The notes below the pieces were generated by a model that was not told where the DNA came from, made no database searches, and saw only the letters and a list, made by a program, of their open reading frames with translations. A stretch of 64,000 bases of DNA from Bacteroidales bacterium. Its GTDB lineage: Bacteria > Bacteroidota > Bacteroidia > Bacteroidales > WCHB1-69. Positions 1 to 16,800 of the stretch are shown piece after piece. The position numbers were made by a program, and so were the translations under genes. The number at the start of each line of letters is the position of its first letter. Position 1 is the stretch's first letter. The stretch is from NCBI GenBank assembly GCA_028693085.1, contig JAQUWC010000002.1, positions 6,420-70,419 on the forward strand. Direction: 5' to 3'.

Positions 1-579
1 TTTTTTTATGTAGGGGTTGAAGTCATAGCCGGCGATACCGTTATTCAATATGGCAAATCATTGGGTATTGGCATTGAATCGGCAAAATACTATACCAGTT
101 TAACTTTAATAGCCATGGTAATCGGATATTTTATCGGCGTTGCTTTGATTCCGAAAGTGATTTCACAACGACATGCTTTGATAGGATGTGCAGTAACAGG
201 TATTATATGTGTGATTTGTGCGTTAAGTGTATCGTCCGAAGTCCAATTTCAATTTCCTTTTATTGACATTACTAGCTTTCGTCCTATCACTATGGTAATT
301 CCATATACCGTTTTTTTTATTACCCTGTTAGGTTTAGCCAATGCGTTGGTATGGCCGATCATCTGGCCGCTCGCTTTGGATGGTCTTGAACAACACACAA
401 AGAAAGCTTCTGCCTTGTTAATTATGGCGATAGCCGGCGGAGCCATCTTACCTTTACTATACGGTCGCTTGGCCGATATGACGAATACCCAACAAGCCTA
501 TTGGATTGCCATTCCTTGTTATATTGTCATTTTGTTTTTTTCGGTCTACGGTTATAAAATCGGCAAAAAAAACATTTAA
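1..579 (+). CDS. MFS sugar permease, FucP/GluP-like; 5' end lies outside the window
   Basis: Frame 1 is open from base 1 (FFYVGVEVIAGDTVIQYGKSLG...) straight into the 61..579 ORF, so the TTG at 61 is an ORF-caller artefact. The product is the C-terminal half of a polytopic permease, with strings (LANALVWPIIWPLAL, AIAGGAILPLLYG) typical of fucose/glucose-galactose MFS transporters. Confidence 0.6.
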   Translation, partial: FFYVGVEVIAGDTVIQYGKSLGIGIESAKYYTSLTLIAMVIGYFIGVALIPKVISQRHALIGCAVTGIICVICALSVSSEVQFQFPFIDITSFRPITMVIPYTVFFITLLGLANALVWPIIWPLALDGLEQHTKKASALLIMAIAGGAILPLLYGRLADMTNTQQAYWIAIPCYIVILFFSVYGYKIGKKNI

Positions 580-727
580 TTTTTTTTGAAAGTATGGGTT
601 TGGCACAATCATTGCACTATAATAAACAAAATTCATTTTACTATTTTTGTGAAAATACCCGCTCTCTTCCCCGAGCGGTATTTTCTTTTTATATACCTTT
701 GTTTCCGCATTAACAAGCTCTGCATAT

Positions 728-1207
728 ATGGATATTATTTTAATTGTCATAGGTATTATTCTTTTAATTGTCGGATTAGTCGGCAGCATTCTACCCATCT
801 TACCCGGCCCTCCCATCGCCTATATAGCCCTTCTTTTATTGCAATTCACACACAAACATCCTTTTTCTACTACTTTTTTGGTTTTATCTGCCGCTGTTAT
901 CATAGTGGTAAGCATTTTGGATTACATAATTCCTACCCTTGGCACAAAAAAATTCGGGGGATCTACCTACGGATCTTGGGGATGTATGATAGGAACCATA
1001 GCAGGCTTATTTTTATTTCCTCCCCTCGGCATCATTATCATGCCCTTTATAGGCGCTTTTATTGGTGAAATGATTTTTGACAATCAACCCCAAAAAGCAT
1101 TAAAAGCTGCATTCGGTTCTTTTCTCGGATTTATTAGCGGTACGCTGATGAAAATTGCGGTTTGCCTGCTTATGATTTTTGCCTTTGTGTGGGGGATGCT
1201 TTCATAG
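728..1207 (+). CDS. DUF456 family small membrane protein
   Basis: Four hydrophobic helices. The N-terminus LIVGLVGSILPILPGPPIAYIALLLL and the FGGSTYGSWG / FIGAFIGE strings match the DUF456 family pattern. Confidence 0.7.
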   Translation: MDIILIVIGIILLIVGLVGSILPILPGPPIAYIALLLLQFTHKHPFSTTFLVLSAAVIIVVSILDYIIPTLGTKKFGGSTYGSWGCMIGTIAGLFLFPPLGIIIMPFIGAFIGEMIFDNQPQKALKAAFGSFLGFISGTLMKIAVCLLMIFAFVWGMLS

Positions 1208-1276
1208 CATGGATAAAAAATAACAGCTAGGAATGCTTGCATTTTCATTCTTCAACCAAGATAAATTATATTTATG

Positions 1277-1284
1277 TATATTTG
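1277..1284 (+). promoter_or_regulatory. Bacteroidota -7 promoter box (TATATTTG, matches TAnnTTTG) for pepD
   Basis: Exact match to the TAnnTTTG consensus, 35 nt upstream of the pepD ATG. Confidence 0.4.
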
Positions 1285-1318
1285 CACTTGAATAATATAA
1301 CCTTTAAATAAAAGCAAT

Positions 1319-2773
1319 ATGAAACACGAAATTTTACAGTTAGAACCGTCTAATGTTTGGAAATATTTTTACGAAATATGTCAGATTCCCCATCCTTCAA
1401 AAAAGGAAGAGAAAATGATACATTATTTAATGGAAGTCGGTAAAAGACTTGGACTAGATACAGAAAAAGATGAAGTAGGCAATGTATTAATCCGCAAGCA
1501 GGCCAGCAAAGGGAAGGAACATATTACCCCTGTCGTGTTTCAAAGTCATATGGATATGGTATGTGAAAAAAATAATGACGTAGCTTTCAATTTCGAAACC
1601 GATGCCATTCAAGCTTACATTGATGGCGAATGGGTCAAAGCCAAAGGAACTACTTTAGGTGCCGATGACGGCATAGGAATGGCCATTGCACTTGCATTAT
1701 TGGAAGACCAAAACCTTGAACACGGTCCTATGGAATGTTTGTTTACCATTGATGAAGAAACGGGATTAACTGGGGCATTTGCATTGGAAGAAAACTGGCT
1801 GAAAGGGAAAATGTTATTAAACCTTGATTCGGAAGATGAAGGTCAATTTTTCATTGGCTGTGCCGGCGGAAAAAGTACTGTTGCCACCATAGAATATAAA
1901 AAAGAAAAACTTCCAGACAATACCACTGCCTTCGAAATTACAGTCAAAGGCTTGAAAGGAGGACACAGCGGCGACGATATCAACAAGAATTTGGGAAATG
2001 CCGTAAAAATCTTAAACCGTATCCTTTACGAAGGTACCTTTAGTTATGATATGAGCATAGCCGATATCCAAGCCGGCAATCTACACAATGCCATTGCCCG
2101 CGAAGGAAAAGCCATCGTACTGATTCCGCATTCGCATAAAGATGATTTTATAAGTTATGTACGTGCTTTTAATCAAATCGTCAAAACCGAATTGAAAGTC
2201 TCCGACCCGGGTGTTGAGATACGCATAGAAGCTTGCAAACAACCTGAATATATCATCGACGAGTATACCCAATGCGATCTGGTTGAAGCGCTGTATGCAT
2301 GCCCACACGGGGTTTTAGCCATGGCACAAGATATTGAAAATTTTGTTGAAACCTCTACGAATTTGGCTTCCGTTAAAATGGATTCCAATAAAATAGTTGT
2401 GATGACGAGTCAACGTTCCTCGGTCGAAAGTAAAAAAGAAGAAGCCTGCAACATGGTTGCTTCTGTATTCGATTTAATGAACGCCGATGTGGAACATAAC
2501 GAAGGTTATCCCGGCTGGACACCCAATCCAAAATCGGAAGTACTGAATATATTGAAGAAAGCTTATCAAAACTTATACCATAAAGAACCTTTGGTGCTTG
2601 CCATTCACGCCGGATTGGAATGCGGACTTATAGGCGAAAAATACCCTGCCATGGATATGATTTCTTATGGTCCTACCCTACGCGGTGTACACTCTCCCGA
2701 CGAACGTTTGTTGATTAAAACCGTCAAAGATGTATGGGATTTAACCGTCGAATTTCTTAGATTGCTGAAATAA
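1319..2773 (+). CDS. pepD: Aminoacyl-histidine dipeptidase (M20 family, PepD / cytosol non-specific dipeptidase)
   Basis: 484 aa. N-terminus LEPSNVWKYFYEICQIPHPSKKE, plus HMDMV, GADDGIGMA and DEETGLTG metal-site motifs characteristic of PepD. Confidence 0.9.
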   Translation: MKHEILQLEPSNVWKYFYEICQIPHPSKKEEKMIHYLMEVGKRLGLDTEKDEVGNVLIRKQASKGKEHITPVVFQSHMDMVCEKNNDVAFNFETDAIQAYIDGEWVKAKGTTLGADDGIGMAIALALLEDQNLEHGPMECLFTIDEETGLTGAFALEENWLKGKMLLNLDSEDEGQFFIGCAGGKSTVATIEYKKEKLPDNTTAFEITVKGLKGGHSGDDINKNLGNAVKILNRILYEGTFSYDMSIADIQAGNLHNAIAREGKAIVLIPHSHKDDFISYVRAFNQIVKTELKVSDPGVEIRIEACKQPEYIIDEYTQCDLVEALYACPHGVLAMAQDIENFVETSTNLASVKMDSNKIVVMTSQRSSVESKKEEACNMVASVFDLMNADVEHNEGYPGWTPNPKSEVLNILKKAYQNLYHKEPLVLAIHAGLECGLIGEKYPAMDMISYGPTLRGVHSPDERLLIKTVKDVWDLTVEFLRLLK

Positions 2774-2945
2774 GTATTGACAGAAAATTGCTGTCCGTAC
2801 CTAATTAATTTTATAGCTAAAATACCTAAGGATACAATCCCGTATAATGATAAACAAAAACTGCACATTTTTACCTTTGTTCTGACTTTGTCATTATACC
2901 ATTCAAACGAAAGGTATAATAATATCATTAATTAATAATCTCAAA

Positions 2946-2953
2946 TAAATTTG
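2946..2953 (+). promoter_or_regulatory. -7 promoter box (TAAATTTG) of the ars operon
   Basis: TAnnTTTG match 63 nt upstream of the ATG at 3016. It places the likely transcription start before the palindrome at 2982-3007. Confidence 0.4.
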
Positions 2954-2981
2954 AATTAATCATGTTATGCTGTGGCACAAT

Positions 2982-3007
2982 TATTGTTCGTAAAATGACG
3001 AACAATA
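2982..3007. promoter_or_regulatory. Perfect inverted repeat TATTGTTCGT-N6-ACGAACAATA, candidate ArsR operator (site 1)
   Basis: 10-bp perfect arms (2982-2991 and 2998-3007) lie between the -7 box and the arsR ATG. The core TGTTCGT-N6-ACGAACA recurs at 3353-3372. Confidence 0.5.
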
Positions 3008-3015
3008 TAATTCAG

Positions 3016-3336
3016 ATGAAAAATAAAAATAATCATAGCGAAGAAGTGTTGATAGCCCGTTTTGCTAAAGCCTTAGGACATCCGACACGCATAGCCATAT
3101 TACAATTTTTAGCCAAACAAGAAAGCTGTTTTTTTGGAGAAATACACGAGGAATTACCTATTGCCAAGGCAACGGTTTCACAGCACTTAAAAGAATTAAA
3201 AGATGCCGGATTGATTCAAGGTGAAATTGAAGGTCCGAAAGTGAAATATTGTATCAATCAAACAAACTGGGAAATAGCTAATAAGGCTTTTAAAAAGTTA
3301 TTCCAAGAATGTAAAATTAAAGATAATTGTTGTTAA
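3016..3336 (+). CDS. arsR: ArsR/SmtB family metalloregulator
   Basis: Winged-helix signature [13 protein letters not shown]...[16 protein letters not shown], with cysteines at ESCFFGE and a C-terminal CC. Start moved from 2962 to the ATG at 3016 because the promoter box and operator palindrome occupy 2946-3007. Confidence 0.85.
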
Positions 3337-3352
3337 TATTTTTTAATGTTTA

Positions 3353-3372
3353 TGTTCGTTGTTTTACGAACA
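3353..3372. promoter_or_regulatory. Second copy of the inverted repeat TGTTCGT-N6-ACGAACA (site 2), between arsR and the next gene
   Basis: 7-bp perfect arms with the same 6-nt spacing as site 1. Located in the 68-nt arsR-downstream spacer. Confidence 0.4.
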
Positions 3373-3404
3373 AGCAAATAAAGACAATATAAAAATTAAA
3401 AAAG

Positions 3405-3641
3405 ATGAATATAAAAATTTTAGGAACAGGATGTTCAAAATGTAAAGTACTGTATGAAAATACAGAAAAAGCCATTGCCGAATTAGGCCTGGAGGCTACC
3501 TTAGTAAAAGAAGAAGACATTGTAAACATTTTAAAGTATAACACATTAACCTTGCCGGCACTGGTGATAGATGAAAAAGTGGTTTCGTCCGGACACATAT
3601 TGTCCGTTTCACAGATAAAAGATGTATTAACCAAAAAATAA
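3405..3641 (+). CDS. Small thioredoxin-fold protein (redox-active disulfide protein 2 type, TM0996/MTH895 family); possibly ArsE-like
   Basis: 78 aa with an N-terminal GTGCSKCK CxxC motif and LPALVIDEKVV. This family is a frequent neighbour of COG0701 permeases in ars operons. Confidence 0.75.
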   Translation: MNIKILGTGCSKCKVLYENTEKAIAELGLEATLVKEEDIVNILKYNTLTLPALVIDEKVVSSGHILSVSQIKDVLTKK

Positions 3642-3648
3642 AAGAAAA

Positions 3649-4080
3649 ATGAAAAAAACCGTATTAATGGTAATGACCGCTTTATTTTTACTTTCCTGCA
3701 GTAATAAGAAGCAAGAACAAACCAAGGTAAAAGATGAAATTCAGCAAGATGGCATTGAAGTGCTTTATTTTCATGGGAAACAACGATGTAAATCCTGTGT
3801 CTCCATAGAATTACATACTAAGGAAATGTTGGATACCTATTTTTCCCAAGAAATGAAAGACGGTAGAATTGTTTTTAAAGCAATTGATATTTCATTAAAA
3901 GAAAATGAGTCCATCGCCGATAAATATGAAATTGCTTTTTCATCACTTTTATTGGTAAAACATCAAAATGGAGAAGAAACGGTCAAGAATCTTACCGATT
4001 TCGGGTTTTCCTATGCCTATAAAAATCCGGAAACATTCATAGAAGGATTGAAAGAAGAAATGGATGTTCTGTTAAAATAA
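3649..4080 (+). CDS. Thioredoxin-like lipoprotein with CxxC (ArsF-family-like)
   Basis: Lipoprotein signal (ALFLLSC) followed by IEVLYFHGKQRCKSCVSIE. Paralogous to the 5626..6018 product. Confidence 0.6.
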   Translation: MKKTVLMVMTALFLLSCSNKKQEQTKVKDEIQQDGIEVLYFHGKQRCKSCVSIELHTKEMLDTYFSQEMKDGRIVFKAIDISLKENESIADKYEIAFSSLLLVKHQNGEETVKNLTDFGFSYAYKNPETFIEGLKEEMDVLLK

Positions 4081-4085
4081 ATATC

Positions 4086-4793
4086 ATGGAATATATTCAA
4101 TTGCTATTAGAAAACAATTCGTTACCCGTAGTTGTTGCGTTTTTACTCGGCTTATTGACCGCAATAAGTCCCTGTCCTTTAGCAACCAATATTACAGCTA
4201 TAGGCTTTATAAGTAAAGATATTGAGAACAAAAATCGTATCTTTTGGAATGGAATGTTGTATACATTGGGGAGGGTGATTGTTTATACCGTATTGGGAAT
4301 CATTTTGATTATTATACTTCGGAAAGGGGCAACTGTTTTTCACATACAAAAAGCGATTGCCCATTACGGTGAAATGTTTTTAGCTCCCATATTGATAGGG
4401 ATAGGATTATTTATGCTTTTTAGCCACAAATTAAAATTAAAAGGATTTGGATATAAAGGAGAAGGAAAAAGATTGACAGGGAAAGGAAGTTGGGGAGCAT
4501 TGTTGTTGGGGATGCTATTTGCTATGGCTTTTTGTCCGACCAGTGCCATTTTCTATTTCGGCATGCTCATCCCCATGTCGGTAACTTGCAGCGGAGGTTT
4601 TTTTATGCCGGTAATCTTTGCCATCGGAACCGGATTACCCGTAATAATTGTGGCTTGGATATTATCTTACAGTGTTTCAAGTATCGGCAATTTTTACAAC
4701 AAAATACAAAGTTTTGAAAAGTGGTTTCGATACATTGTGGCAGGTTTATTTATCCTGGTAGGAATTTATTATGCTATCATGTTTTATCTATAA
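4086..4793 (+). CDS. CcdA/DsbD-like transmembrane thiol-disulfide electron transporter (the family NCBI labels ArsG-like)
   Basis: 235 aa with about 6 TM helices. Cysteines are embedded in the helices ISPCPLATN and AFCPTSAIFYF, the arrangement seen in CcdA/DsbD-beta. Confidence 0.65.
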   Translation: MEYIQLLLENNSLPVVVAFLLGLLTAISPCPLATNITAIGFISKDIENKNRIFWNGMLYTLGRVIVYTVLGIILIIILRKGATVFHIQKAIAHYGEMFLAPILIGIGLFMLFSHKLKLKGFGYKGEGKRLTGKGSWGALLLGMLFAMAFCPTSAIFYFGMLIPMSVTCSGGFFMPVIFAIGTGLPVIIVAWILSYSVSSIGNFYNKIQSFEKWFRYIVAGLFILVGIYYAIMFYL

Positions 4794-4804
4794 ATAATAT
4801 ACAA

Positions 4805-5605
4805 ATGAAAAACGAAGATTTAAAAAAGATTGTAAAAGAAAAGTACGGTGAAATAGCCGAACAAAGTAAAACGCAAAACGAAACATCCTGTTGCGGTGCG
4901 TCCTGTTGTTGCGGAACAGACTATACGGTTTTCAGTGAAAGCTACAGTCATATAAAAGGTTATAACAGCGATGCCGATTTAGGCTTAGGATGCGGACTCC
5001 CCACCGAATTTGCACAAATCAAAACCGGTGATACGGTAGTTGATTTAGGCTCCGGTGCCGGAAACGATTGTTTTGTTGCTCGTGCTCTTACCGGAGATTC
5101 CGGGAAAGTTATCGGCATTGATATGACCGAGGCTATGGTAAAAAAAGCAACAGAAAATGCTGCTAAACTTGGGTTTAAAAACATTTCTTTTGTATTAGGC
5201 GATATTGAAAACATGCCCGTTGAGGATAATACAGCCAATGTGGTTATCAGTAATTGTGTATTAAATTTAGTGCCCGATAAAGAAAAAGCTTTCCGTGAAA
5301 TATACCGAATTTTAAAAACGGGAGGACATTTGTCGGTTTCTGATGTGGTGATAAAGGGAAGCTTACCCGACGGATTAAAAAATGCTGTCGAAATGTATGC
5401 CGGATGTGTTTCCGGAGCTATTCAAACGGATGACTATCTTTCCATCATGGAAAAAGTCGGATTAAAAAACATACGTATTCAAAAAACAAAAGCTATAGAT
5501 ATCCCCGATGATATTTTGTTGAAATACATATCGGAAAAGGAGATTCTATCCTTTAAACAAAGTCAAAACGGTATTTATAGTATTACGGTATATGCCCAAA
5601 AATAA
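4805..5605 (+). CDS. arsM: Arsenite S-adenosylmethionine methyltransferase
   Basis: N-terminal Cys cluster SCCGASCCCG, SAM-binding VVDLGSGAGNDCF, and the conserved ArsM cysteines in GLGCGLP, ISNCVLNL and YAGCVSGA. Start moved from 4721 to the ATG at 4805, because the upstream extension overlaps the preceding gene. Confidence 0.9.
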   Translation: MKNEDLKKIVKEKYGEIAEQSKTQNETSCCGASCCCGTDYTVFSESYSHIKGYNSDADLGLGCGLPTEFAQIKTGDTVVDLGSGAGNDCFVARALTGDSGKVIGIDMTEAMVKKATENAAKLGFKNISFVLGDIENMPVEDNTANVVISNCVLNLVPDKEKAFREIYRILKTGGHLSVSDVVIKGSLPDGLKNAVEMYAGCVSGAIQTDDYLSIMEKVGLKNIRIQKTKAIDIPDDILLKYISEKEILSFKQSQNGIYSITVYAQK

Positions 5606-5625
5606 TCATTTAATAAAAATTTTTT

Positions 5626-6018
5626 ATGAAGAAGTTACAGGTCCTTTTCATCTTAGTAATGTTAACTACAGGAGCCATGGCTCAAAGCGGTAGTAAAAAA
5701 ATTGAAGTATTGTATTTCAAAGCTAATTTATCTTGTTGTCAAGCCAGAGCATGCCAAAATCTGGAAAAAGTAACCAAAGAAATTATTACCAATAATTTCC
5801 CTAACAATGAGGTGGTCTTTAAAACGGTAGCCTTAACCGATGAAGCCAATAAAGAATTAGTAGATACCTACAATGCTAAATCGCAAACTCTTATCATTCT
5901 TAACAATAAGAAAAAAAAATTCGTTAATCTTTCCGCTGCATTAGCAAAATATGCAAGAGACAACGACAAAACTGCCTATGAAAAAGAACTTATAGCCAAT
6001 ATCAAAAAATTGAAATAG
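5626..6018 (+). CDS. Secreted thioredoxin-like protein, divergent paralogue of the 3649..4080 product
   Basis: Type I signal peptide (GAMAQ). IEVLYFKANLSCCQARACQNLE aligns by eye with IEVLYFHGKQRCKSCVSIE, and the VVFKTV / IVFKAI and LIIL / LLLV blocks are retained. Confidence 0.5.
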   Translation: MKKLQVLFILVMLTTGAMAQSGSKKIEVLYFKANLSCCQARACQNLEKVTKEIITNNFPNNEVVFKTVALTDEANKELVDTYNAKSQTLIILNNKKKKFVNLSAALAKYARDNDKTAYEKELIANIKKLK

Positions 6019-6035
6019 GGAAAACAACTTAAAAC

Positions 6036-7358
6036 ATGGAATTAAAAAAGGAAATTAAAATCCTGTTTTGGATAGTCCTTGTATTTTTAGGGATATTTTT
6101 TCTACCGATTCAAAGTCCGGTATTTAATACTGCTGTGGATGCAACCTTCGATTTAGCCAAATGGTATGCACGCGAACATGTGGTTTTGTGCTTATTGCCG
6201 GCATTTTTGATCGCAGGGGTAATATCGATATTTGTCAGCCAGGCATCGGTAATCAAATATTTCGGAGCAAAAGCTAAAAAGTGGGTAGCCTATACGGTGG
6301 CTGCCGTTTCGGGAACTATATTGGCGGTATGTTCTTGCACTATATTACCTTTGTTTTCAAGCATACACAAGCGAGGAGCCGGATTAGGACCTGCCATTGC
6401 CTTCCTTTATTCCGGTCCGGCTATTAACATATTAGCCATTATATTAACAGCTCGTATATTAGGCTTTGAAATGGGAGTGGCTCGTGTCATAGGAGCTGTA
6501 TTCTTTAGTGTAATTATCGGTTTAATCATGGCATTCATTTATCGCAAGGAAGAAAAAATAAAAGCGGAAGAACAAATGAATTTTCCGGATGTACCCGAGA
6601 AACGTCCCATTTGGCAAACAATGATACACTTCTTTACTTTGGTGTTGATATTGGTTTTTGCTAATTGGGGAAACCCTTCTGCAGAAGATACGTCAAGTCT
6701 ATGGTTTTATATTTGGTCTTATAAATGGTATATAACGGGAGCCTTTGGTTTGGTGTTGGTATATTCAATGATATATATCTTAAAACTTAAACCTTGGCAT
6801 GTGTTAACCGGAGCTGCTTTGACAGCATTGAGTGCTTTTCTATTTGGCAATCCAATGATTAGCATAGTAATAGCTATTACTGCCGTGAGTGTGATTTCTT
6901 TATTGGATAAAAAAGAAGAAAACGACAACAAAGCATGGATACTCTCCTCCTGGGGTTTTACCAAACAAATCGTTCCTTTATTGGCTATAGGTGTTGTCAT
7001 TGCGGGATTTCTGTTAGGTTCCACCCATGATAACACTTCTATTGCCGGTGTAATTCCCAATGCATGGATTAGTGCATTGGTAGGAGGTAATTCAATATTT
7101 TCTAATTTCTTTGCCTCTATAGTAGGGGCTTTTATGTATTTTGCCACTTTAACAGAAGTTCCCATTATACAAGGCTTATTGGCATCAGGAATGGGTAAAG
7201 GTCCTGCTTTGGCATTATTATTGGCAGGTCCCTCCTTGTCGTTACCTAATATGTTAGTGATACGTGGAATTATGGGTACACAAAAAACAATCGTATATAC
7301 CCTTTTAGTTATTTTATTATCGACAATAGCCGGATTAATTTTCGGTTACATTGTATAA
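6036..7358 (+). CDS. COG0701/DUF318 permease, ArsP-like (putative organoarsenical efflux permease)
   Basis: 440-aa polytopic protein with an intramembrane AVCSCTILPLF cysteine pair, plus LYSGPAINILAI and LLAGPSLSLPNM repeat-half motifs typical of this permease family. Confidence 0.7.
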   Translation: MELKKEIKILFWIVLVFLGIFFLPIQSPVFNTAVDATFDLAKWYAREHVVLCLLPAFLIAGVISIFVSQASVIKYFGAKAKKWVAYTVAAVSGTILAVCSCTILPLFSSIHKRGAGLGPAIAFLYSGPAINILAIILTARILGFEMGVARVIGAVFFSVIIGLIMAFIYRKEEKIKAEEQMNFPDVPEKRPIWQTMIHFFTLVLILVFANWGNPSAEDTSSLWFYIWSYKWYITGAFGLVLVYSMIYILKLKPWHVLTGAALTALSAFLFGNPMISIVIAITAVSVISLLDKKEENDNKAWILSSWGFTKQIVPLLAIGVVIAGFLLGSTHDNTSIAGVIPNAWISALVGGNSIFSNFFASIVGAFMYFATLTEVPIIQGLLASGMGKGPALALLLAGPSLSLPNMLVIRGIMGTQKTIVYTLLVILLSTIAGLIFGYIV

Positions 7359-7377
7359 AAATAAATAAGCTAATCCT

Positions 7378-7791
7378 ATGAAAATACTTATTTTATGTAC
7401 AGGTAACAGTTGCCGCAGTCAAATGGCACAAGGCTTTTTACAATCCTTTGATAAAAATCTGGAGGTGCATTCGGCAGGTACCCATCCTGAAAAACAAGTC
7501 AATCCCAATGCGGTGAAAGTTATGGCTGAACTCGGAATCGACATTTCTCATCATGTACCGAAAAATGTGGCTATGTATACAGGAGAATCATGGGATTATG
7601 TAATTACCGTTTGTGATAATGCCAAGGAAAGTTGTCCGGTTTTTATAGGAGAAGTAAAACATCGTTTACACGTGGGATTTGAAGACCCAGCTAAAGCAAA
7701 GGGTGAAGCCGAATATGTATTGAATGTATATCGAAAAATCAGAGATAAAATCAAGCATACATTCTCTGAATTTGCAATATCTATCCTTTAA
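7378..7791 (+). CDS. arsC: Arsenate reductase, LMW-PTP (thioredoxin-coupled) type
   Basis: P-loop ILCTGNSCRSQMA, VITVCDNAKESCP and FEDP, which is the Cys10/82/89-type arrangement. Confidence 0.9.
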   Translation: MKILILCTGNSCRSQMAQGFLQSFDKNLEVHSAGTHPEKQVNPNAVKVMAELGIDISHHVPKNVAMYTGESWDYVITVCDNAKESCPVFIGEVKHRLHVGFEDPAKAKGEAEYVLNVYRKIRDKIKHTFSEFAISIL

Positions 7792-7984
7792 CTATACGCG
7801 TATATAATCAAAGATCACCGGCGAACATTCATACATTATTTACCTATTCTTTTTTTTCTATTCATTCAAAAATTAGCAAAATATTATACTTTTATGTGGC
7901 TGTGTAATAAGCGGATTCAAAATAATTTCAATAAAAAATACTTAATTAACTCATAAAAAAATTGTATAATAAAAAAATAAAGAT

Positions 7985-7992
7985 TACCTTTG
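7985..7992 (+). promoter_or_regulatory. -7 promoter box (TACCTTTG) for the NifX-Trx / MarR / CoADR unit
   Basis: TAnnTTTG match 39 nt upstream of the ATG at 8031, within a 240-bp spacer after arsC. Confidence 0.4.
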
Positions 7993-8030
7993 CGCCGTTA
8001 TTTGGAAAATTCAAAACTAAACTATTCAAC

Positions 8031-8756
8031 ATGAAAATTGCCATTCCAACCAAAGATAACATGGTTGATGAACATTTTGGAGACGCAGAGCAATACACTA
8101 TATATACCATTGACAATCAAAGTAAGATTGTATCTCAAGAAAATTTAGCTTGTAAGGAAGGATGTGGTTGTAAAAGCAATATAGCCACTACTCTTCATAA
8201 GCTGGGAGTTGAAATCATTTTAGCCGGAAATATGGGAGATAATGCCAAAAACATACTTGAGGACAATCAAATGAAAGTAATCCGCGGATGTAAAGGAAAT
8301 ATCGATGACCTTATCCAAGCTTATCTTGTAGGAAACGTATCCGACAATGGAGAAGGATGTCATCACAAGCATTCATCCCACGATTGTGGTTCAGCGCAAA
8401 TCTCTACTCCCATTGTATTAGATAAAGCTTCGTTTTTATCCAAAGTTTTTAATTACGAAGCCCAAGCTGAAAAGTGGGTTTACGAGGGAGATAAACCTGC
8501 CATCATTGACTTTCATGCCACCTGGTGTGCCCCTTGTAAATCAGTGTCACCTATTTTAGAAGACCTTGCCAAAGAATATGCCGGTCAGCTTTATATTTAT
8601 AAAATTGATATTGACCAAGAGCAAGAATTAGCCGCCGTTTTTGGAATACAAAGCGTTCCCACCTTTCTATTTATACCCTTAAACGATACCCCTAAAATGG
8701 CTTCAGGTGCACTTTCCAAAGAAAACTTTTTAAAAATTATTAAAGATTTAATATAA
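8031..8756 (+). CDS. Fusion protein: NifB/NifX-like (dinitrogenase FeMo-cofactor-binding fold) domain + Cys/His-rich linker + thioredoxin
   Basis: The N-terminal part, MKIAIPTKDNMVDEHFGDAEQYTIYTI...ILAGNMGDNAKNIL, resembles the Nitro_FeMo-Co fold. The linker is GEGCHHKHSSHDCG. The C-terminal part is a canonical thioredoxin (FHATWCAPCK...VPTFLFI). Start moved from 7962 to 8031 on promoter position. Confidence 0.75.
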   Translation: MKIAIPTKDNMVDEHFGDAEQYTIYTIDNQSKIVSQENLACKEGCGCKSNIATTLHKLGVEIILAGNMGDNAKNILEDNQMKVIRGCKGNIDDLIQAYLVGNVSDNGEGCHHKHSSHDCGSAQISTPIVLDKASFLSKVFNYEAQAEKWVYEGDKPAIIDFHATWCAPCKSVSPILEDLAKEYAGQLYIYKIDIDQEQELAAVFGIQSVPTFLFIPLNDTPKMASGALSKENFLKIIKDLI

Positions 8757-8760
8757 GAAA

Positions 8761-9132
8761 ATGGAAAAGAAATATAAGTCATTAAGTTATATCCGTGAAT
8801 TATATCAAGCTATTGTTGATTTCGAAATGGGATTTCAACAAATGTATGATATGACTTTTAATGAAGGTGTTGTATTATGTGCGTTGAAAAGAACTCCTTT
8901 ATCCTCCGGAGAATTAGCGAAGGAATTGAAGCTATCCGCTTCCAATACTTCAAAAGTCATTAAATCTGTCGAAGACAAAGGATTTATTGAAAGATATATG
9001 GGACAAAAAGATCGCCGAAAAATGTATTTTTCCTTAACCGAAAGTGGAAAAGTAAAAGTCAATTCTTTAAAATGCGATGAATCCCAAATGCCTGCCAAAT
9101 TGAGAGACATTCTTCGTGAAATTGAAAAATAA
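8761..9132 (+). CDS. MarR family transcriptional regulator (two cysteines)
   Basis: 123 aa with the winged-HTH pattern LSSGELAKELKLSASNTSKVIKSVEDKGFIER...DRRKMYFSLTESG. Confidence 0.8.
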   Translation: MEKKYKSLSYIRELYQAIVDFEMGFQQMYDMTFNEGVVLCALKRTPLSSGELAKELKLSASNTSKVIKSVEDKGFIERYMGQKDRRKMYFSLTESGKVKVNSLKCDESQMPAKLRDILREIEK

Positions 9133-9150
9133 AAAAAATTAAAATTAATT

Positions 9151-11601
9151 ATGAAACACATTATTATCGGTGGCGTTGCCGGCGGGGCAACGGCTGCTGC
9201 TCGAATTAGACGAAACGATGAATCTTGCGAGATTCTTCTTTTTGAAAAAGGGAAATATATCTCCTATGCCAATTGTGGTTTGCCCTATTACATAGGAGGT
9301 GTCATTAACGATAGAGAAAAACTTTTCCTTCAAACTCCTCAATCCTTTGGCACACGCTTTCATGTAGATGTAAGGGTTGAACAAGAAGTCATTGCTATCG
9401 ACAGTACGCATAAAACCATTACGGTACGTAAAGCAAACGGAGATCAATACTCCGAAACTTACGATAAGTTGTTGCTATCACCGGGTGCGAAACCTTTTTC
9501 GCCTCCTATTCCGGGCATAGATGAAGAAGGAATTTTTACCCTCAGAAATGTCAGCGATACCGATGCCATCAAACAGTATATTCAAACACACGATATCAAA
9601 AAAGCTGTTATCGTAGGAGCCGGTTTTATCGGACTCGAAATGGCCGAAAATCTGCATCACATAGGTGCCGAAATTAGCATAGTCGAAAAACTTGAACAAG
9701 TAATGGCCCCCATGGATTATTCCATGGCCGCAATCATACATGAGCATCTCCAACTGAAAGGAGTAAATCTCTATTTGGGTAAATCTGTTACTGCTTTTCA
9801 TCGCACTAACAATCAAATAGAAATCAGCCTCGATTCCAACGAAACCCTTAGCAGCGACATGGTTATTTTATCCATAGGGGTACGTCCCGAAACACAATTA
9901 GCCGTCGATGCCGGACTTAAAATTGGCGAAACCAAAGGAATATGGGTCGATGAATATTTGCAAACATCGCAAGAGGATATTTATGCTGTAGGCGATGCCA
10001 TTGAATTTCCCCATCCTATTACCGGTAAACCCTGGCTTAATTATTTAGCCAATCCGGCCAACCGTCAAGGACGTTTGGTAGCCGATAATATGGTATTCGG
10101 CAACAAAGAAAAATACGAAGGAGCCATTGGAACTTCGATTGCTAAAGTGTTTGATATGACAGCCGCTGCTACCGGTCTTTCCGCAAAATATCTACGTAGT
10201 ATGAACATCCCCTATAAAAGTTCTACTACTCACTCCGGTTCTCATGCAGGCTATTACCCCAATGCATTTAACATCACAATTAAAATTACCTTTCATCCGG
10301 AAACCGGACGTTTATACGGTGGACAATGCATCGGCATAGAAGGAATTGATAAAAGAATCGACCAATTGGCCCTACTGATTAAAACCGGGGGAAGCATTTA
10401 TGATTTAATAAAACTCGAACATGCCTATGCCCCTCCTTTCTCTTCCGCTAAAGATCCTATAGCCATTGCCGGTTATGTAGCCCATAATATTATCAGTGGC
10501 AGAATGCCTGTTATTTATTGGAGAGATATTCTGAATACCGAGCCTTCTTCTTATACGTTAATAGATGTCAGAACTAAAGAAGAATTTAAATTAGGTGCTA
10601 TCCCCAATGCCATTAACATTCCTGTTGACGATCTCCGCTCCCGTTTGAATGAAATACCAAGCGATAAACCCATTTATCTCTATTGTAAAATCGGATTAAG
10701 AGGCTATCTGGCTCAACAAATCCTAATAGGAAACGGCTTTAAAAATGTATATAATCTCGTAGGAGGTTATACGACTTTCAAACCTGCCACTACGGATTTC
10801 CTACATTGTCAGCCAAAGACTATCAAGAACAGCCCCCAATATGCAGCCAAACCGGCCGAAAGCATCCTGCTTAAAAACATCGTAAAAATCGATGCCTGTG
10901 GTTTACAATGCCCGGGACCTATTTTAAAATTAAAAAATAAAATTGACGAAATAAAGGAAGGCGAACGATTAGAAGTCGTTTCGACCGACCCGGGATTTTC
11001 TCGCGATGCAGAAGCCTGGTGTAATATGACCGGAAATACCTTGATATCAAACACCAATGAAAAAGGGAAGTACACCGTTATCGTCGAAAAAAACGCACCT
11101 AAAAATTGCACGGCGACAACATCTTGCGATGCCAAAGGAAAAACATTAATACTTTTCAGTCAGGAATTAGATAAAGCCTTGGCTACTTTCGTCTTGGCAA
11201 ACGGTGCCGCTGCAACCGGTCAAAAAGTAACGATTTTCTTCACTTTCTGGGGCTTGAACGTTATTAAAAAAGTTGAAAAACCGAAAGTCAACAAAGATAT
11301 CTTCGGAAAAATGTTTTCAATAATGTTGCCCTCCAGTTCACTCAAACTCAAACTTTCAAAATTCAATATGTTTGGCATGGGCAGCGCCATGATGCGCTAC
11401 ATTATGAAATCAAAAGGCATTGATTCACTGGAATCTTTACGTCAACAAGCATTGGATAACGGCGTTGAATTTATTGCATGCCAAATGTCAATGGATGTGA
11501 TGGGGGTAAAAAAAGAAGAATTAATAGATAATGTTACCATCGGCGGCGTGGCCACCTACATGGAAAAAGCCGACCAAGCAAATATTAATTTATTTGTCTA
11601 G
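9151..11601 (+). CDS. Four-domain sulfur-trafficking oxidoreductase: CoA-disulfide/persulfide reductase + rhodanese + TusA-like + DsrE/DsrF-like
   Basis: FAD site IIGGVAGGATAAARIRR and the CoADR active site SYANCGLPYY (Cys42). Rhodanese domain IDVRTKEEF...YLYCKIGLRG. TusA motif DACGLQCPGPILKLK. C-terminal DsrE-like region ILFSQELDKALATFVLANGAAATG...FIACQMSMD. Confidence 0.85.
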   Translation: MKHIIIGGVAGGATAAARIRRNDESCEILLFEKGKYISYANCGLPYYIGGVINDREKLFLQTPQSFGTRFHVDVRVEQEVIAIDSTHKTITVRKANGDQYSETYDKLLLSPGAKPFSPPIPGIDEEGIFTLRNVSDTDAIKQYIQTHDIKKAVIVGAGFIGLEMAENLHHIGAEISIVEKLEQVMAPMDYSMAAIIHEHLQLKGVNLYLGKSVTAFHRTNNQIEISLDSNETLSSDMVILSIGVRPETQLAVDAGLKIGETKGIWVDEYLQTSQEDIYAVGDAIEFPHPITGKPWLNYLANPANRQGRLVADNMVFGNKEKYEGAIGTSIAKVFDMTAAATGLSAKYLRSMNIPYKSSTTHSGSHAGYYPNAFNITIKITFHPETGRLYGGQCIGIEGIDKRIDQLALLIKTGGSIYDLIKLEHAYAPPFSSAKDPIAIAGYVAHNIISGRMPVIYWRDILNTEPSSYTLIDVRTKEEFKLGAIPNAINIPVDDLRSRLNEIPSDKPIYLYCKIGLRGYLAQQILIGNGFKNVYNLVGGYTTFKPATTDFLHCQPKTIKNSPQYAAKPAESILLKNIVKIDACGLQCPGPILKLKNKIDEIKEGERLEVVSTDPGFSRDAEAWCNMTGNTLISNTNEKGKYTVIVEKNAPKNCTATTSCDAKGKTLILFSQELDKALATFVLANGAAATGQKVTIFFTFWGLNVIKKVEKPKVNKDIFGKMFSIMLPSSSLKLKLSKFNMFGMGSAMMRYIMKSKGIDSLESLRQQALDNGVEFIACQMSMDVMGVKKEELIDNVTIGGVATYMEKADQANINLFV

Positions 11602-11866
11602 TTAGACATTTTGAAGATTTTAAATTTCATTAAATTAGCATATATGGTTGATAGATTTATGTACAAATAGTATATTTCCATTTTTGATAAAATTTTAATA
11701 CTAAGATAGTTTAGGTAATTAGGACAAGTTCATATCTTTTTAAAACTAATCATTTTCATTATGCAAGTATACTAATTTTACATTATTGTCCGGTAAAAAC
11801 ACGTTATTAGTAACAGATTCTTCGGACATTAGTGAAACTTTATAAACTTGACAAATTTTCAACGTA

Positions 11867-12370
11867 TTAACTCTCCGATATTCTTCTTTCAGTTTCGAAC
11901 ACTTCCAAATTTTCGGGCATATGTTGTATGAAATCAAAACGCAAAAAAGTGATATAAGAATGGAAGCCTTCTCGACCGGCAGCTCCGGGATTGATGTAAA
12001 GTAAGTGGTGGGTTTGATCATACTTGATACGTAAAATATGGGAATGACCGCATACAAAAATGGAAGGTTGATGGATATGTATCAAACGCAATGCACGAGG
12101 ATTATATTTGTTAGGATAGCCTCCAATATGCGTCATCAATACTTTTGTTTCGTTTAGATAAAATATTTCATTTTCTTTACATTGACTTCTTATTTCAGCA
12201 CCATCGATATTACCGTGTACGGCACGTAAGGGTTTGAAGTTTTGCAATTGAATGAAGGTTTCTTTACGTCCAATATCGCCACAATGCCAGATTTCATCAC
12301 AAGGGGCAAAAAAAGTAAATAGTTCAGGATGCAAAAAAGAGTGAGTGTCGGATAAAATACCTATTTTCAT
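11867..12370 (-). CDS. YfcE/MJ0936-type metallophosphoesterase
   Basis: MKIGILSDTHS, HCGDIG, GNID and VCGHSH metal-ligand motifs in the canonical order. Confidence 0.8.
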   Translation of the reverse strand: MKIGILSDTHSFLHPELFTFFAPCDEIWHCGDIGRKETFIQLQNFKPLRAVHGNIDGAEIRSQCKENEIFYLNETKVLMTHIGGYPNKYNPRALRLIHIHQPSIFVCGHSHILRIKYDQTHHLLYINPGAAGREGFHSYITFLRFDFIQHMPENLEVFETERRISES

Positions 12371-12529
12371 ATGTCAAACTTATATTGTTTCATTAACCCA
12401 AAGCAGTGATCGCCTTGATATAAATCATACTAATACGCATTGGCAAATTTACATGAAATTATCCAATTACACACAGACGGATAAAAATATATTTTAAAAT
12501 TTATAGAGGAAAAGTACATGATTTTTTTA

Positions 12530-12537
12530 TACTTTTG
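12530..12537 (+). promoter_or_regulatory. -7 promoter box (TACTTTTG)
   Basis: TAnnTTTG match 49 nt upstream of the ATG at 12586. It lies inside the ORF-caller's N-terminal extension, which argues for the downstream start. Confidence 0.35.
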
Positions 12538-12585
12538 CGAATAATATATTTTATATATATCAATTATCAGCAACCCTACAACATC

Positions 12586-13719
12586 ATGCATATGGATACA
12601 AACATACATATCAAAGAGGTTGAAAGCAAGAAAGATCTACAAACATTTATCCGCTTCCAACGATCATTATACAAAAATTGCCCCCATTATGTACCTCCTT
12701 TAGACCGGGAACAAAAAATGGCACTACAAAAACATCCGGCCCTATCGTTTTGCGAACGTAGGCTGTGGTTAGCCTATAAGGACTCGCAAGTAGTAGGTCG
12801 TATTGCCGGCATCATAAACCATAAATACAATGCCTTAAAAAATAAAAAGCGAATTCGTTTCGGATGGTTTGACATGATTAACGATGTATCGGTAGCCCAC
12901 GCCCTTATAAGTGCCGTTGAAGACTGGGGCAGGCAAGAAAAGCTCAACGAAATCAGCGGGCCTTCCCGTTATTCGAATATGGAAAAACAAGGCATGCTTA
13001 TCGACGGATTTGATGAAACACCCTCGGTTTCGGCCGAATATAATTATGCTTACTATCCGACTATAATTGAAGCCCTTGGATTTCATAAAGAAGTGGATTA
13101 TATTCAATACAAAGTGAAAGTGAAAGAAGTGCCCGATAAAATCAAAAATTTAAATACCTACATCTCAAATAAATATAATATAAAAATAAAAGAATTTAAG
13201 CATAAAAAAGAATTAAAAACCTACGGAAAAGCATTGCTTAAAGCACTGAACGAAAGCTACGTAAACATTTATAATTTCATCCCTTTAAACGACGAAGAAA
13301 TTGATTTTCATATAAAAAACAATCTTTATTTAATCCAAAAAGACTTGGTTAATGTGTTAGTAGACGAAAATAATAGCTTGGTTGGATTCAGTTTATGTGT
13401 GCCTTCTTTGACTACTGCCCTACAAAAAGCAAAAGGCTCACTATTCCCTTTTGGCTGGTATTACATTCAAAAAGCATTAAAGAAAAACACAAGGGTCGAT
13501 ATGTATCTAACCGGTGTGCTGCCCAAATGGTCCGGAAGTGGCATACACATAATGTATCACTGCAAATTAAACGAAATATTTATCCGAAAAGGATATCAAT
13601 ACGCCATCACCAACCAACAATTGGAATACAATAAAGCCAATCGTATCTGGGAAAAATACGATGCCGAATTATTGTTTACACGGCGATGTTACCTAAAAAA
13701 TTTGTTTTTAAATGAATGA
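12586..13719 (+). CDS. Conserved Bacteroidota protein, probably GNAT-fold acyltransferase-like; function unknown
   Basis: 377 aa. The N-terminus IKEVESKKDLQTFIRFQRSLYKNCPHYVPPL...LAYKDSQVVGRIAGIIN resembles a widespread Bacteroidota family usually annotated as GNAT/hypothetical. This is recognition only. Confidence 0.45.
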   Translation: MHMDTNIHIKEVESKKDLQTFIRFQRSLYKNCPHYVPPLDREQKMALQKHPALSFCERRLWLAYKDSQVVGRIAGIINHKYNALKNKKRIRFGWFDMINDVSVAHALISAVEDWGRQEKLNEISGPSRYSNMEKQGMLIDGFDETPSVSAEYNYAYYPTIIEALGFHKEVDYIQYKVKVKEVPDKIKNLNTYISNKYNIKIKEFKHKKELKTYGKALLKALNESYVNIYNFIPLNDEEIDFHIKNNLYLIQKDLVNVLVDENNSLVGFSLCVPSLTTALQKAKGSLFPFGWYYIQKALKKNTRVDMYLTGVLPKWSGSGIHIMYHCKLNEIFIRKGYQYAITNQQLEYNKANRIWEKYDAELLFTRRCYLKNLFLNE

Positions 13720-13877
13720 ACCTACGGACTAATCAAAAAAAGCTAGCTTTCACAGGAGGATTTTTGGTTTTATTAAAAATATATTGTTGATAAAAAGTCC
13801 TTTTTTTTATGATTTTTGTTAGTAAGTACGTTAACTTTGTAGACAAAATTTCATCTTTTAACATAAAGACCGTTAAA

Positions 13878-16800
13878 ATGCAACTAATCGATAGTAAGAA
13901 AATTAGATATGTAATTATCTTTGCTTTTATAGTATGTACCGGTATAAGTCATGCGCAAAAAAATAAAACATATTCCTTTCCCGACAGAGAATATAATTCG
14001 GCCATTGAATTATTTGCTTTAGAGCAATATGGTGCAGCCAAAAAAATGTTTAAACTTGTTTACGATGTCATTCCTCAAAAATACGACATTCGTAAGGAAC
14101 AATCCCATTACTATATGGGAATTTGTGCTTGTTTACTGTATCATAAAGATGCCGAGACACTTATTTTATCGTTTATGGAAGCCTATCCCGAAAATGCCTG
14201 CCTCGACAGATTATGGTTTTATTTAGGAAATTATTATTTCAATCAATCTTCTTACCGCAAAGCCTTACATGCTTACGAAAAAATTGATCTTCGCTTGCTT
14301 CCTCATGAATGCATCAACGAGTATGAGTTTAAATTAGGATATGCTTATTTTACACACGAAAACTATAAAGAGGCCAAACCTCTCTTATCGAAAGCCAAAG
14401 AAAAAGACAGTCAATATACCTCCAAAGCTTTGTTTTACTATTCACACATTCAATACCTCGAAAACAATTACCATTCGGCACTCATGGGTTTTGAAAAATT
14501 AGCCCACGAACCCTCCTACAGCAGCATCGTTCCATTTTACATCTCACACATTTACTTTGCATTGGGCGACTATGAGAAAATCATACAACAAGCCGAAGAC
14601 TTATTAGCCAAAAGCACACAAAAGAGATGGCCTGAAATAAATCGTATCATTGCCCAATCCCATTATCAATTAAAACAGTACGACAAAGCGATTCCGTATT
14701 TTACAGCCTATACCGAAAAAACAGCTGTACTCAGCTGCGATGATTTTTATGAAATCGGCATTTGCTATTATAAAAACAAACAATACGAACAAGCTATTGA
14801 TCTTCTTACAAAATCCTTTTGTAAAGACAACGACAGCATCAATCAATATGTGTATTTTTCGTTAGGCGATTGCTACTTACAAACAAACCAAAAAGAATTT
14901 GCCTCCAATGCCTTTCTTTCTGCCTACGAACTAAGGAAAAATCCCATCATTATGGAAGATGCTTTATATGCCTATGCTAAACTACAATATGAGTTAACAA
15001 GCAATCCTTTTGTTCCTTCCATAGCAGCATTCGAAAAGTTTTTAAACGAATTTCCTCAATCCAATTATAAAAACGAAGCCGAACATTTTCTAAGCAGTAT
15101 TTATTTGACAACCAAAAATTACAAAGCGGCTATTGCCTCATTGGATAAAATAGAACATAAAAGCATTACTTTACTGAAAGCCTACCAACGAGTACTGTAT
15201 TATAGGGGCATCGAACTCTATAACAACAAAGCCTATCAAGAGGCGGAAAAACACTTTAATTTAGCCATAGAAAACAATTACAATCCCCTTATTTATGCCC
15301 AAAGCTTATATTGGAAAGGCGAAATATACTATCGAGATAAGGATTACGACCAAGCCATAAACTATTATAATCTTTTCCTCTCATCACGAAATGCCTCGCC
15401 TAAAACCGATGAATATGCCATGGCATATTACAACCTGGGCTATGCCCAATTTAAAAAGAAACAATATCCTTTGGCCTTAAAAAGCTTCTTATCCTTTTTC
15501 CAGGAAGATGTCAATCTATACGATAAGAAGATAATAGCCGATGCTTATAACCGCACCGGCGATTGTTATTATATGTCGTCCGCATTACAAAACGCCATCG
15601 AAGCCTATGATAAAGTCATAACCTTACAGTCATATGATGTGGATTACGCTTTATATCAGAAAGCACAATCGCAAGGCGGACTTCGTTTATACGATACTAA
15701 AATCGCTACACTCGAAACTTTATTGAAAGAATATCCCAAATCAAATTATAGTATCGATGCACACATCGAAATGGCAAATACCTATATGCTGACAGGGAAC
15801 AATGCAAAAGCCGAAGAATGCTATGCAAATTTCATCCAAAACAATCCTTCCAGTCCACTTTTAAAAACCGCTTTATTAAAACTCGGCTTGATTTATTTCA
15901 ATACCGAACAAGATGAGAAAGCATTGGATGTCTTTAAGAAAATCGTAAAAAATTATCCCAAATCAGAAGAAGCAGCGACTGCATTGAAAAATATAGAAAC
16001 CATATATTCTACCGGTGGCAACATTGAAGAATTCTTTCTTTACGTAAAAAATGTTTCTTTCGCCAATATAACGGTCGAAAATCAAGATACAATCATGTAT
16101 AATGCCGCTTCTGAAAAGTATTTCACCAAACAATTTGATGATGCCGCTAAAGGATTTACCGCTTATCTGGATCGTTTTCCCAAAGGAGTGTTTACCACTC
16201 AAGCTCATTTTTATAACGGAGAATGTGCCATGAGAAAATCCGATTTCGACAAAGCTTTGCTAAACTATGAATATGTGATTCAAAATCCCATGGATCCTTT
16301 TGAAATCACAGCTCTACAAAATGTCGCTGATATTTATTATCGAAAAGGAGACTATGAAAAATCCCTCACTTATTTTACATTATTACATAAAAAGACAACA
16401 CTCCCCTCACAAAAAACACAAGCACTATTGGGAATAACACGTTCATCTTATTTCAATAAAGCTTATAGCAATGCCATGGCTATGTCGGAAATGCTTTTGG
16501 AAGAACCTAAAATAAGCACCGAACAAAAAGAGGAAGCACATCTCATCATTGCTCGCTCCGCTTTGGAATTAAATGATTTGAAAAAATCTCTTCAAGAATA
16601 CACTTTATTGTCAAAATCATCCAAGCCCGATTATGCCTCCGAAGCTTTGTATTATATCGCTTACATCATTTACAAACAAGACAATCTGCTTGAAGCCGAG
16701 AAGAAAATCTTTGAAATCCTAACCAATATATCCAACGACTACTGGCTGGCTAAAAGCTATATCTTGTTAGGGGACATTTACCTACAAAAGGGAAATTCAT

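Follow-up and report, generated by a model that had tools for sequence, protein, structure and literature searches.

The window analysed here is a 64,000-nucleotide stretch of a Bacteroidales genome (GTDB lineage WCHB1-69; assembly GCA_028693085.1, contig JAQUWC010000002.1, positions 6,420 to 70,419 of the forward strand). The listing of its open reading frames (ORFs) contains two plus-strand ORFs, 18 nt apart, that encode a 123-aa MarR-type regulator and an 816-aa enzyme in which coenzyme A (CoA)-disulfide reductase, rhodanese, TusA and DsrE modules are fused. A gene for a NifX-thioredoxin protein (nifX-trx) ends 4 nt before marR (Table 1). We read the three genes as a thiol and sulfane-sulfur redox operon of the type known from Bacteroides fragilis as BmoR/BF638R_0572, and place the probability of this reading at roughly 0.6. 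The evidence in hand consists of the domain architecture, residue conservation, synteny, an operator motif in relatives and RNA contigs over the three genes.

Table 1. Features of the locus (window coordinates) and, in the last row, loci of a recurrent neighbour in other Bacteroidales
Feature	Position	Strand	Description and basis
-7-like promoter box TACCTTTG	7984..7991	+	Match to TAnnTTTG within the 240-nt arsC/nifX-trx gap; read from sequence
nifX-trx	8031..8756	+	First gene of the unit, 241 aa; NifX-like (Nitro_FeMo-Co) domain, Cys/His-rich linker, WCAPC thioredoxin; Pfam
Operator-like palindrome TTTCCAAAGAAAA	8713..8725	none	One mismatch to TTTCC-N3-GGAAA; inside the trx 3' coding end
marR	8761..9132	+	BmoR-family winged-helix protein, 123 aa, Ser9/Cys40/Cys105; Pfam MarR_2, AF2 model, synteny
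Fusion gene, whole	9151..11601	+	816 aa; ORF listing
Fusion residues 1-445	9151..10485	+	FAD/NAD(P)H CoA-disulfide-reductase module, redox Cys42; Pfam, PDB matches
Fusion residues 467-544	10549..10782	+	Rhodanese, Cys512 in C-X4-R loop (C512...R517); Pfam
Fusion residues 579-647	10885..11091	+	TusA, CPxP Cys587 plus C583 and C624; Pfam
Fusion residues 664-816 and stop codon	11140..11601	+	DsrE-like (DrsE_2), Cys777; Pfam, PDB 3pnx
GC-x-(S/N)G-x-CPITSSP membrane protein	L003:4902-5108; L008:8569-8778; L009:8457-8672; L026:8462-8659; L049:2600-2827		Other Bacteroidales loci

Pfam recognizes every module of the fusion, with E-values of 2e-63 for the reductase (Pyr_redox_2 plus Pyr_redox_dim), 4e-17 for the rhodanese, 3e-21 for TusA and 4e-58 for DrsE_2 (residues 664-815). 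The cysteines lie in the motifs SYANC42GLPYY, YC512KIGLRG, C583GLQC587PGP and IAC777QMS. When the protein was aligned with 80 homologues, C42, C512, C587 and C777 were each found in 81 of 81 sequences, C624 in 80 and C583 in 71. The invariance of the first four indicates that the motifs are not there by chance.

A search of the PDB aligned residues 2-547 end to end with CoADR-RHD of Bacillus anthracis, a CoA-disulfide reductase (CoADR) with a rhodanese domain (3ICR, E = 1.9e-165), and matched the same residues to Npsr of Shewanella (3NTA, 5e-164) and to the CoA-persulfide reductase (CoAPR) of Enterococcus faecalis (8A56, 9e-153). Residues 662-816 matched a "putative sulfurtransferase DsrE" (3PNX, 2e-27). 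The fusion shares with the first three enzymes the pyridine nucleotide-disulfide oxidoreductase fold, a single redox cysteine (SxxxC) and a C-terminal rhodanese with a catalytic cysteine; those proteins end after the rhodanese, at ~550-575 aa, whereas the fusion continues with TusA and DsrE. CoAPR needs C42 as well as the rhodanese C508, and its bound CoA is thought to swing between C508 and C42 carrying sulfane sulfur, with C42 freeing H2S (PMC9405070). The spacing of C512 and R517 in the fusion is that of C508 and R513 in CoAPR (PMC9405070). The two systems differ in their regulators, which are CstR, of the CsoR family, for CoAPR and a neighbouring MarR for the fusion.

The remainder of the protein recalls CstA of Staphylococcus aureus, whose domains run rhodanese-TusA-DsrE. 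Residues ~450-816 of the fusion carry these domains, each with an invariant active-site cysteine (C512, C587 and C777), but here they are joined to a flavoprotein reductase. CstA is characterized as a multidomain sulfurtransferase by Higgins et al. (2015), as that work is cited in PMC5480029. The surroundings also differ from the cst operon: positions 1-16000 of the window contain no sulfide:quinone oxidoreductase, no CstB or other persulfide dioxygenase and no CstR, and the regulator is a MarR. A comparison of the C-terminal 366 residues with 1.84 billion representatives recovered stand-alone Rhd-TusA-DsrE proteins of 357-378 aa, with the same domain order and 37-45% identity, and many proteins of 800-870 aa, with identity down to 35%, in which the same part follows a CoADR module. 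One cluster of the longer proteins includes the 822-aa "CoA-disulfide reductase" of Thermoanaerobacterium xylanolyticum, so the fusion is not confined to the Bacteroidota.

An enzyme and regulator of this kind were described in B. fragilis by Teixeira et al. (2018, PMC6158253). BF638R_0572 combines CoADR, rhodanese, TusA and DsrE in one protein and forms an operon with the MarR protein BmoR; deletion of bmoR derepresses BF638R_0572 50-fold, purified BmoR shifts the promoter of the operon in electrophoretic mobility shift assays, and that promoter has a TTTCC inverted repeat (PMC6158253). The BF638R_0572 mutant shows raised sensitivity to diamide, and the authors propose reduced CoA (CoASH) as low-molecular-weight thiol (PMC6158253). 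The window resembles this system in the identical four-domain architecture of the oxidoreductase and in the small, co-directional MarR gene adjoining it. It differs in that marR lies upstream of the enzyme gene, not downstream, in the extra nifX-trx gene at the head of the operon, in a promoter without TTTCC-N3-GGAAA and in a serine at the N-terminal position where the regulators' conserved cysteine stands. Repression of the oxidoreductase gene by MarR, and binding to its promoter, are demonstrated for B. fragilis only (PMC6158253) and are putative for the window by orthology. The literature searched yielded no later paper on BF638R_0572 or on any Bacteroides persulfide reductase.

The fusion is widespread. 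A protein database gave at least 8000 matches, the best 120 of which all have the same Pfam set and measure ~813-817 aa, and a scan of one genome per species found relatives in at least 587 species genomes. Locus counts given here rest on the best 80 of these relatives, which are all Bacteroidales (Bacteroides, Phocaeicola, Prevotella, Parabacteroides, Tannerella and Odoribacter among them) and whose orthologues are 62-77% identical to the window protein. A homologue of the window MarR adjoins the fusion gene in 58 of the 80 loci, always on the same strand (E = 1e-16 to 1e-54), downstream in 54 of them and upstream in four (L001, L003, L007 and L018); among loci with at least 1.5 kb on both sides, the MarR gene is present in 45 of 58. 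In Bacteroides hominis (L047), for example, the MarR gene follows the fusion gene at 7 nt and encodes a protein with 38% identity to the window MarR (E = 7e-28). Closer to the source organism, among 30 relatives of the same taxonomic family, the four-domain gene occurs in 10 and a two-domain CoADR-RHD gene in four (one has both).

The initial annotation of this DNA, which reported an 816-aa ORF with CoADR, rhodanese, TusA and DsrE modules next to a MarR gene, is confirmed by the ORFs, the Pfam matches, all four motifs and the cysteines present in 81 of 81 sequences. It went on to present the fusion of the whole relay as a novelty and the MarR as a different regulatory solution. Neither point survives: the four-domain fusion is published (BF638R_0572, PMC6158253) and recurs in the many species genomes counted above, BmoR is published in the same paper, and sulfane-sulfur sensing by MarR proteins (E. 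coli MarR, MexR, OhrR and MgrA) has been reviewed (PMC11211675). The window locus is a copy of an operon known from B. fragilis and common across the Bacteroidales, and the pairing of enzyme and regulator is ordinary; what is new here are local details only, namely the lost sensor cysteine, the lack of a canonical operator and the fused NifX-thioredoxin partner. As both the fusion and its MarR neighbour have been described before, the locus adds little as a discovery.

The regulator matches MarR_2/MarR in Pfam (E = 4e-10). Its AlphaFold2 (AF2) model, computed as a monomer, is a compact MarR fold with a confidence score (pLDDT) of 93.7, in which helix 1 holds position 9, helix 2 holds Cys40, residues 60-72 form the recognition helix and Cys105 sits in the loop before the last helix. 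The folds of the dedicated persulfide sensors, CstR (CsoR family), SqrR and BigR (ArsR family) and FisR (sigma-54 family), were not encountered; the best Pfam and structure matches are to MarR proteins, and the match to the ArsR model HTH_5 is only marginal (1e-4). In an alignment of 59 MarRs (window numbering), Cys40 is present in 58, Cys9 in 57 and Cys105 in 17, and the conserved pair of the family is C9 and C40, C105 not being conserved family-wide. The window protein has serine at position 9, encoded by AGT, one step from TGT. Ser9 is shared with two sister species (G004 and G007), a further species of the genus (G006) keeps cysteine (TGT), and all four keep C40 and C105. The ratio of non-synonymous to synonymous substitution rates between G004 and G007 shows purifying selection on the MarR with Ser9 (0.073); the enzyme has a ratio of 0.083 and NifX-Trx one of 0.075. 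In the conserved recognition helix, S61, S64, K65 and E71 are invariant across the MarR alignment.

These data change what can be said of a "two-cysteine MarR", as the regulator had been called from its motifs VLC40AL and LKC105DE: both cysteines are there, and C40 is nearly universal, but C105 occurs in a minority of the family and the family's Cys9 is absent from this protein. The accompanying proposal, a thiol-based MarR controlling a persulfide or thiol reductase, fits BmoR/BF638R_0572 well (PMC6158253), but C40 and C105 are not the family's cysteine pair. Among proteins of known structure, SarZ is closest in sequence to the window MarR, and AbfR is the second-best match of the family profile. 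The hidden Markov model (HMM) alignments to the solved OhrR, SarZ and AbfR stop short of the N-terminal cysteine, so that the equivalence of Cys9 is only extrapolated, by ungapped extension, which would put it within one residue of SarZ C13, MgrA C12, OhrR C15 and AbfR C13. The likeness to these four regulators lies in the MarR fold and, for the family but not the window protein, in Cys9 of helix 1. OhrR, SarZ and MgrA have a reactive cysteine near the N-terminus of helix 1, where the window has Ser9; compared with all four, the window MarR is shorter, and the BmoR-type family has in helix 2 a second, near-invariant Cys40 that they lack.

In relatives a palindrome, TTTCC-N3-GGAAA, precedes the fusion gene; of 47 upstream regions, 28 have it without a mismatch and 33 with at most one. 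Its flanks are AT-rich, it often occurs twice, ~52 nt apart, and it agrees with the TTTCC repeat reported for BmoR. B. faecis and B. xylanisolvens (L029 and L034) have no MarR homologue within 6 kb of the fusion gene and a perfect operator, GTTATTTCCATAGGAAACTATTT, 32 nt before its start; the regulator may be encoded elsewhere in these species. The MarR of an uncultured Bacteroides (L037:3246-3635) is without both family cysteines (His9 and Tyr40), and a perfect TTTCC-N3-GGAAA is nonetheless found upstream of its fusion gene.

The -7 promoter consensus of the Bacteroidetes is TAnnTTTG, and TACCTTTG matches it. The alignment of the window promoter with G004 and G007 is too AT-rich to be telling; the sister genomes have no canonical TTTCC-N3-GGAAA, and an inverted-repeat search of the promoter returned only trivial AT-rich palindromes. 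A scan for sigma-70 promoters and terminators gave 34 promoters (33.3 expected) and 6 terminators (6.8 expected), and operator matches with at most one mismatch in the window numbered 9 (5.0 expected). Exact operator sites genome-wide (G000) numbered 4, as many as in the reversed control, and all were inside ORFs, which gives no evidence of a regulon. To the eye, GTTATTTGGAAAA (7996-8008) is similar to a single half-site of the Bacteroides operator together with its left flank.

The RNA evidence consists of assembled contigs from four metatranscriptome runs, not of reads. One contig, 8024-10753, bridges nifX-trx, marR and the fusion gene. Two studies have contigs that begin at 8024, 7 nt before the nifX-trx ATG and past the TACCTTTG box, which hints weakly at a transcript start; the contig over arsC, the last gene of an arsenic-resistance-type (ars) cluster on the upstream side, stops at 7794, and none of the four runs has a contig over 7795-8023. 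In two studies (X16 and X18) contigs begin at 8755/8757, 4-6 nt before the marR ATG and ~30 nt past TTTCCAAAGAAAA, which suggests a possible internal promoter in the trx 3' coding end. Contigs of two studies (X17 and X18) end at 9107, ~25 nt before the marR stop codon, and run into Illumina adaptor; this may be coincidental, or an RNA may have its 3' end or be processed there, between marR and the enzyme gene. Gaps and ends of such contigs are weak hints only, and taken together they would fit a unit apart from ars, in which transcription may also start internally, ahead of marR.

The first gene of the unit joins two partners that recur elsewhere. Scored on a longer ORF starting at TTG, its product matches Nitro_FeMo-Co (1e-21) and Thioredoxin (4e-23). 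The NifX-like domain carries a CKEGCGCK insert and the thioredoxin linker is rich in Cys and His (GEGCHHKHSSHDCG), a composition that suggests metal or cluster binding. In ~17 other loci a thioredoxin orthologue (51-60% identity) adjoins marR or the fusion gene, and L042 and L054 have a separate NifX-like gene there; the fused form was seen only in the window's genus (sister genomes G004 and G007). A gene for an S-adenosylmethionine (SAM) methyltransferase also recurs in related operons.

The most likely function of the enzyme would be NAD(P)H-driven reduction of the persulfides and disulfides of CoA and of proteins, carrier-bound persulfides among them. Homology to CoAPR/Npsr and to CstA points to a flavoenzyme of the CoA-persulfide-reductase type extended by a CstA-like TusA-DsrE sulfur relay. 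NAD(P)H would reduce FAD, which in turn would reduce a Cys42-S-S-CoA mixed disulfide; the tightly bound CoA would then swing to the rhodanese Cys512 and take up sulfane sulfur as CoA-persulfide, and attack by Cys42 would release H2S. DsrE Cys777 and TusA Cys587 may gather sulfur, as persulfide or thiosulfonate, from proteins or from donors of low molecular weight and hand it on to Cys512. The reductase core could also hold CoA reduced: the fusion is the sole CoADR homologue in the source genome, which is 97% complete, so it probably maintains the CoA pool as well. By orthology the MarR is a presumed autoregulated repressor, which across the family has a Cys9 (helix 1) and a Cys40 (helix 2) and would bind TTTCC-N3-GGAAA over the transcript start. 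With Cys9 replaced by serine and the canonical operator missing, regulation in the window's genus is probably altered, to a switch with one cysteine (Cys40) or with Cys40 and Cys105 acting at a weak or diverged site. A fuller version of this proposal is tentative, and we would put it forward as possible at most: a BmoR-type repressor rewired in this genus (Ser9, no operator), acting at a diverged site through Cys40, Cys40/Cys105 or a non-covalent ligand, with NifX-Trx as a dedicated reductant or as a sulfur or metal-cluster carrier for the enzyme.

Several observations weigh against assigning the locus to a BmoR-type sulfane-sulfur operon. The window MarR is missing the family's Cys9, and its promoter (7792-8030) contains no TTTCC-N3-GGAAA. 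The best position weight matrix site of the 64-kb window, at 8708-8730 (TTTCCAAAGAAAA), scores 10.1 bits, where the training sites reach 15.8-28.5 bits; placed 36 nt ahead of the marR start codon, it overlaps conserved thioredoxin codons (ALSKENF), so that coding constraint may explain the palindrome. The recognition helix is conserved despite the missing operator, and regulation deduced from orthology may not transfer to a locus without both Cys9 and the operator. Most fusion-bearing genomes of the window's family show no such MarR; it was detected in four genomes of one genus, the window's own, and in no others of the family. Metatranscriptome contigs can contain DNA, and a single transcript is not provable from them. 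The literature searched gave no assay of any enzyme of the four-domain type and no report of its substrate or of the signal sensed by BmoR-type regulators, and the B. fragilis phenotypes come from oxygen and diamide, not sulfide. Finally, the enzyme falls below the cut-offs of the NCBIfam equivalogs for plain CoADR (TIGR03385/NF007123), with 477.2 bits against 578.8 for TIGR03385 and 380.8 against 458 and 352.4 against 394 for other models, and is not filed as a simple CoADR.

The nature of the B. fragilis phenotypes means that a plain disulfide-stress role fits them equally well. The enzyme could be a CoA-disulfide reductase with a housekeeping role, countering disulfide and oxidative stress in an anaerobe without glutathione, its tail being accessory (for example in thioredoxin or protein-disulfide exchange) and the MarR sensing general oxidants instead of sulfane sulfur. 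The response of B. fragilis to oxygen exposure, its diamide sensitivity and the proposal of CoASH as its thiol (PMC6158253) agree with such a role, as does a thioredoxin within the operon. That the genome has no second CoADR homologue points the same way. Yet an accessory tail sits poorly with C512, C587 and C777 each being invariant in 81 sequences, an invariance that speaks for a part in catalysis; among solved structures, the nearest enzymes that end in a rhodanese are persulfide reductases that need the rhodanese cysteine (PMC9405070), and the equivalog scores below cut-off tell against a plain CoADR. On balance we regard the housekeeping role, taken alone, as rather unlikely.

The relay might also serve to mobilise sulfur instead of detoxifying it, with DsrE and TusA binding sulfur derived from thiosulfate or tetrathionate, or supplying biosynthesis, and the flavoprotein recycling carrier thiols. 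Binding of this kind is known for DsrE3A and TusA of Metallosphaera, and members of both families carry sulfur in pathways of oxidation and biosynthesis. Loss of bmoR in B. fragilis also derepresses an operon of doxDA (thiosulfate:quinone oxidoreductase) and trxP, and this effect depends on BF638R_0572 (PMC6158253). No sulfur-oxidation or doxDA genes were seen, however, in the operon or in the neighbouring loci inspected, the source is a small-genome (2.15 Mb) anaerobe from digesters, and a relay joined to a reductase that uses NAD(P)H suggests that sulfide is released reductively; this makes mobilisation an improbable main purpose. Even less can be said for a coupling to the arsenic genes upstream (arsR through arsM, an ArsP-type permease and arsC), in which thio-arsenicals would be made or handled with persulfide sulfur from the relay. 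The order arsC-nifX-trx-marR-fusion is kept in G004 and, as far as the locus reaches, in G007, but ArsC or ArsP homologues occur near the fusion in none of the 80 other loci, the two units stand 240 nt apart with a promoter box in between, and the RNA contigs break off at 7794 and resume at 8024. The ars cluster appears to be transcribed apart from the nifX-trx/marR/fusion operon, and we consider the coupling highly improbable.

The putative persulfide-reductase operon matters beyond this genome because hundreds of Bacteroidales species have its four-domain enzyme, among them commensals of the gut, an oral pathogen (Tannerella) and inhabitants of digesters. The C9/C40 pair of the family and the TTTCC-N3-GGAAA operator are ready hypotheses for B. 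fragilis, for which the natural Ser9 variant could serve as a comparison point. The interest is modest and rests on the enzyme and on the family-wide cysteine pair and operator defined here, not on the window locus.

The co-directional ars-type cluster occupies positions 2962-7791 and encodes ArsR, a thioredoxin-like lipoprotein, a CcdA/DsbD-like membrane protein, an ArsM-like methyltransferase, a 130-aa paralogue of the lipoprotein, an ArsP_1 permease and an ArsC of the low-molecular-weight protein tyrosine phosphatase type; ArsB, Acr3 and ArsA were not seen in the stretch examined around it. Metagenomes of digesters, sludge and bioreactors and one of soil, from at least eight studies, contain the stretch at full word share, and it is also present in six metatranscriptomes; its spread over these metagenomes identifies the source organism as a common digester inhabitant. 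In several other Bacteroidales, a predicted membrane protein of 66-76 aa with the motif GC-x-(S/N)G-x-CPITSSP, absent from the window operon, is encoded between the fusion gene and the thioredoxin or marR genes (Table 1).

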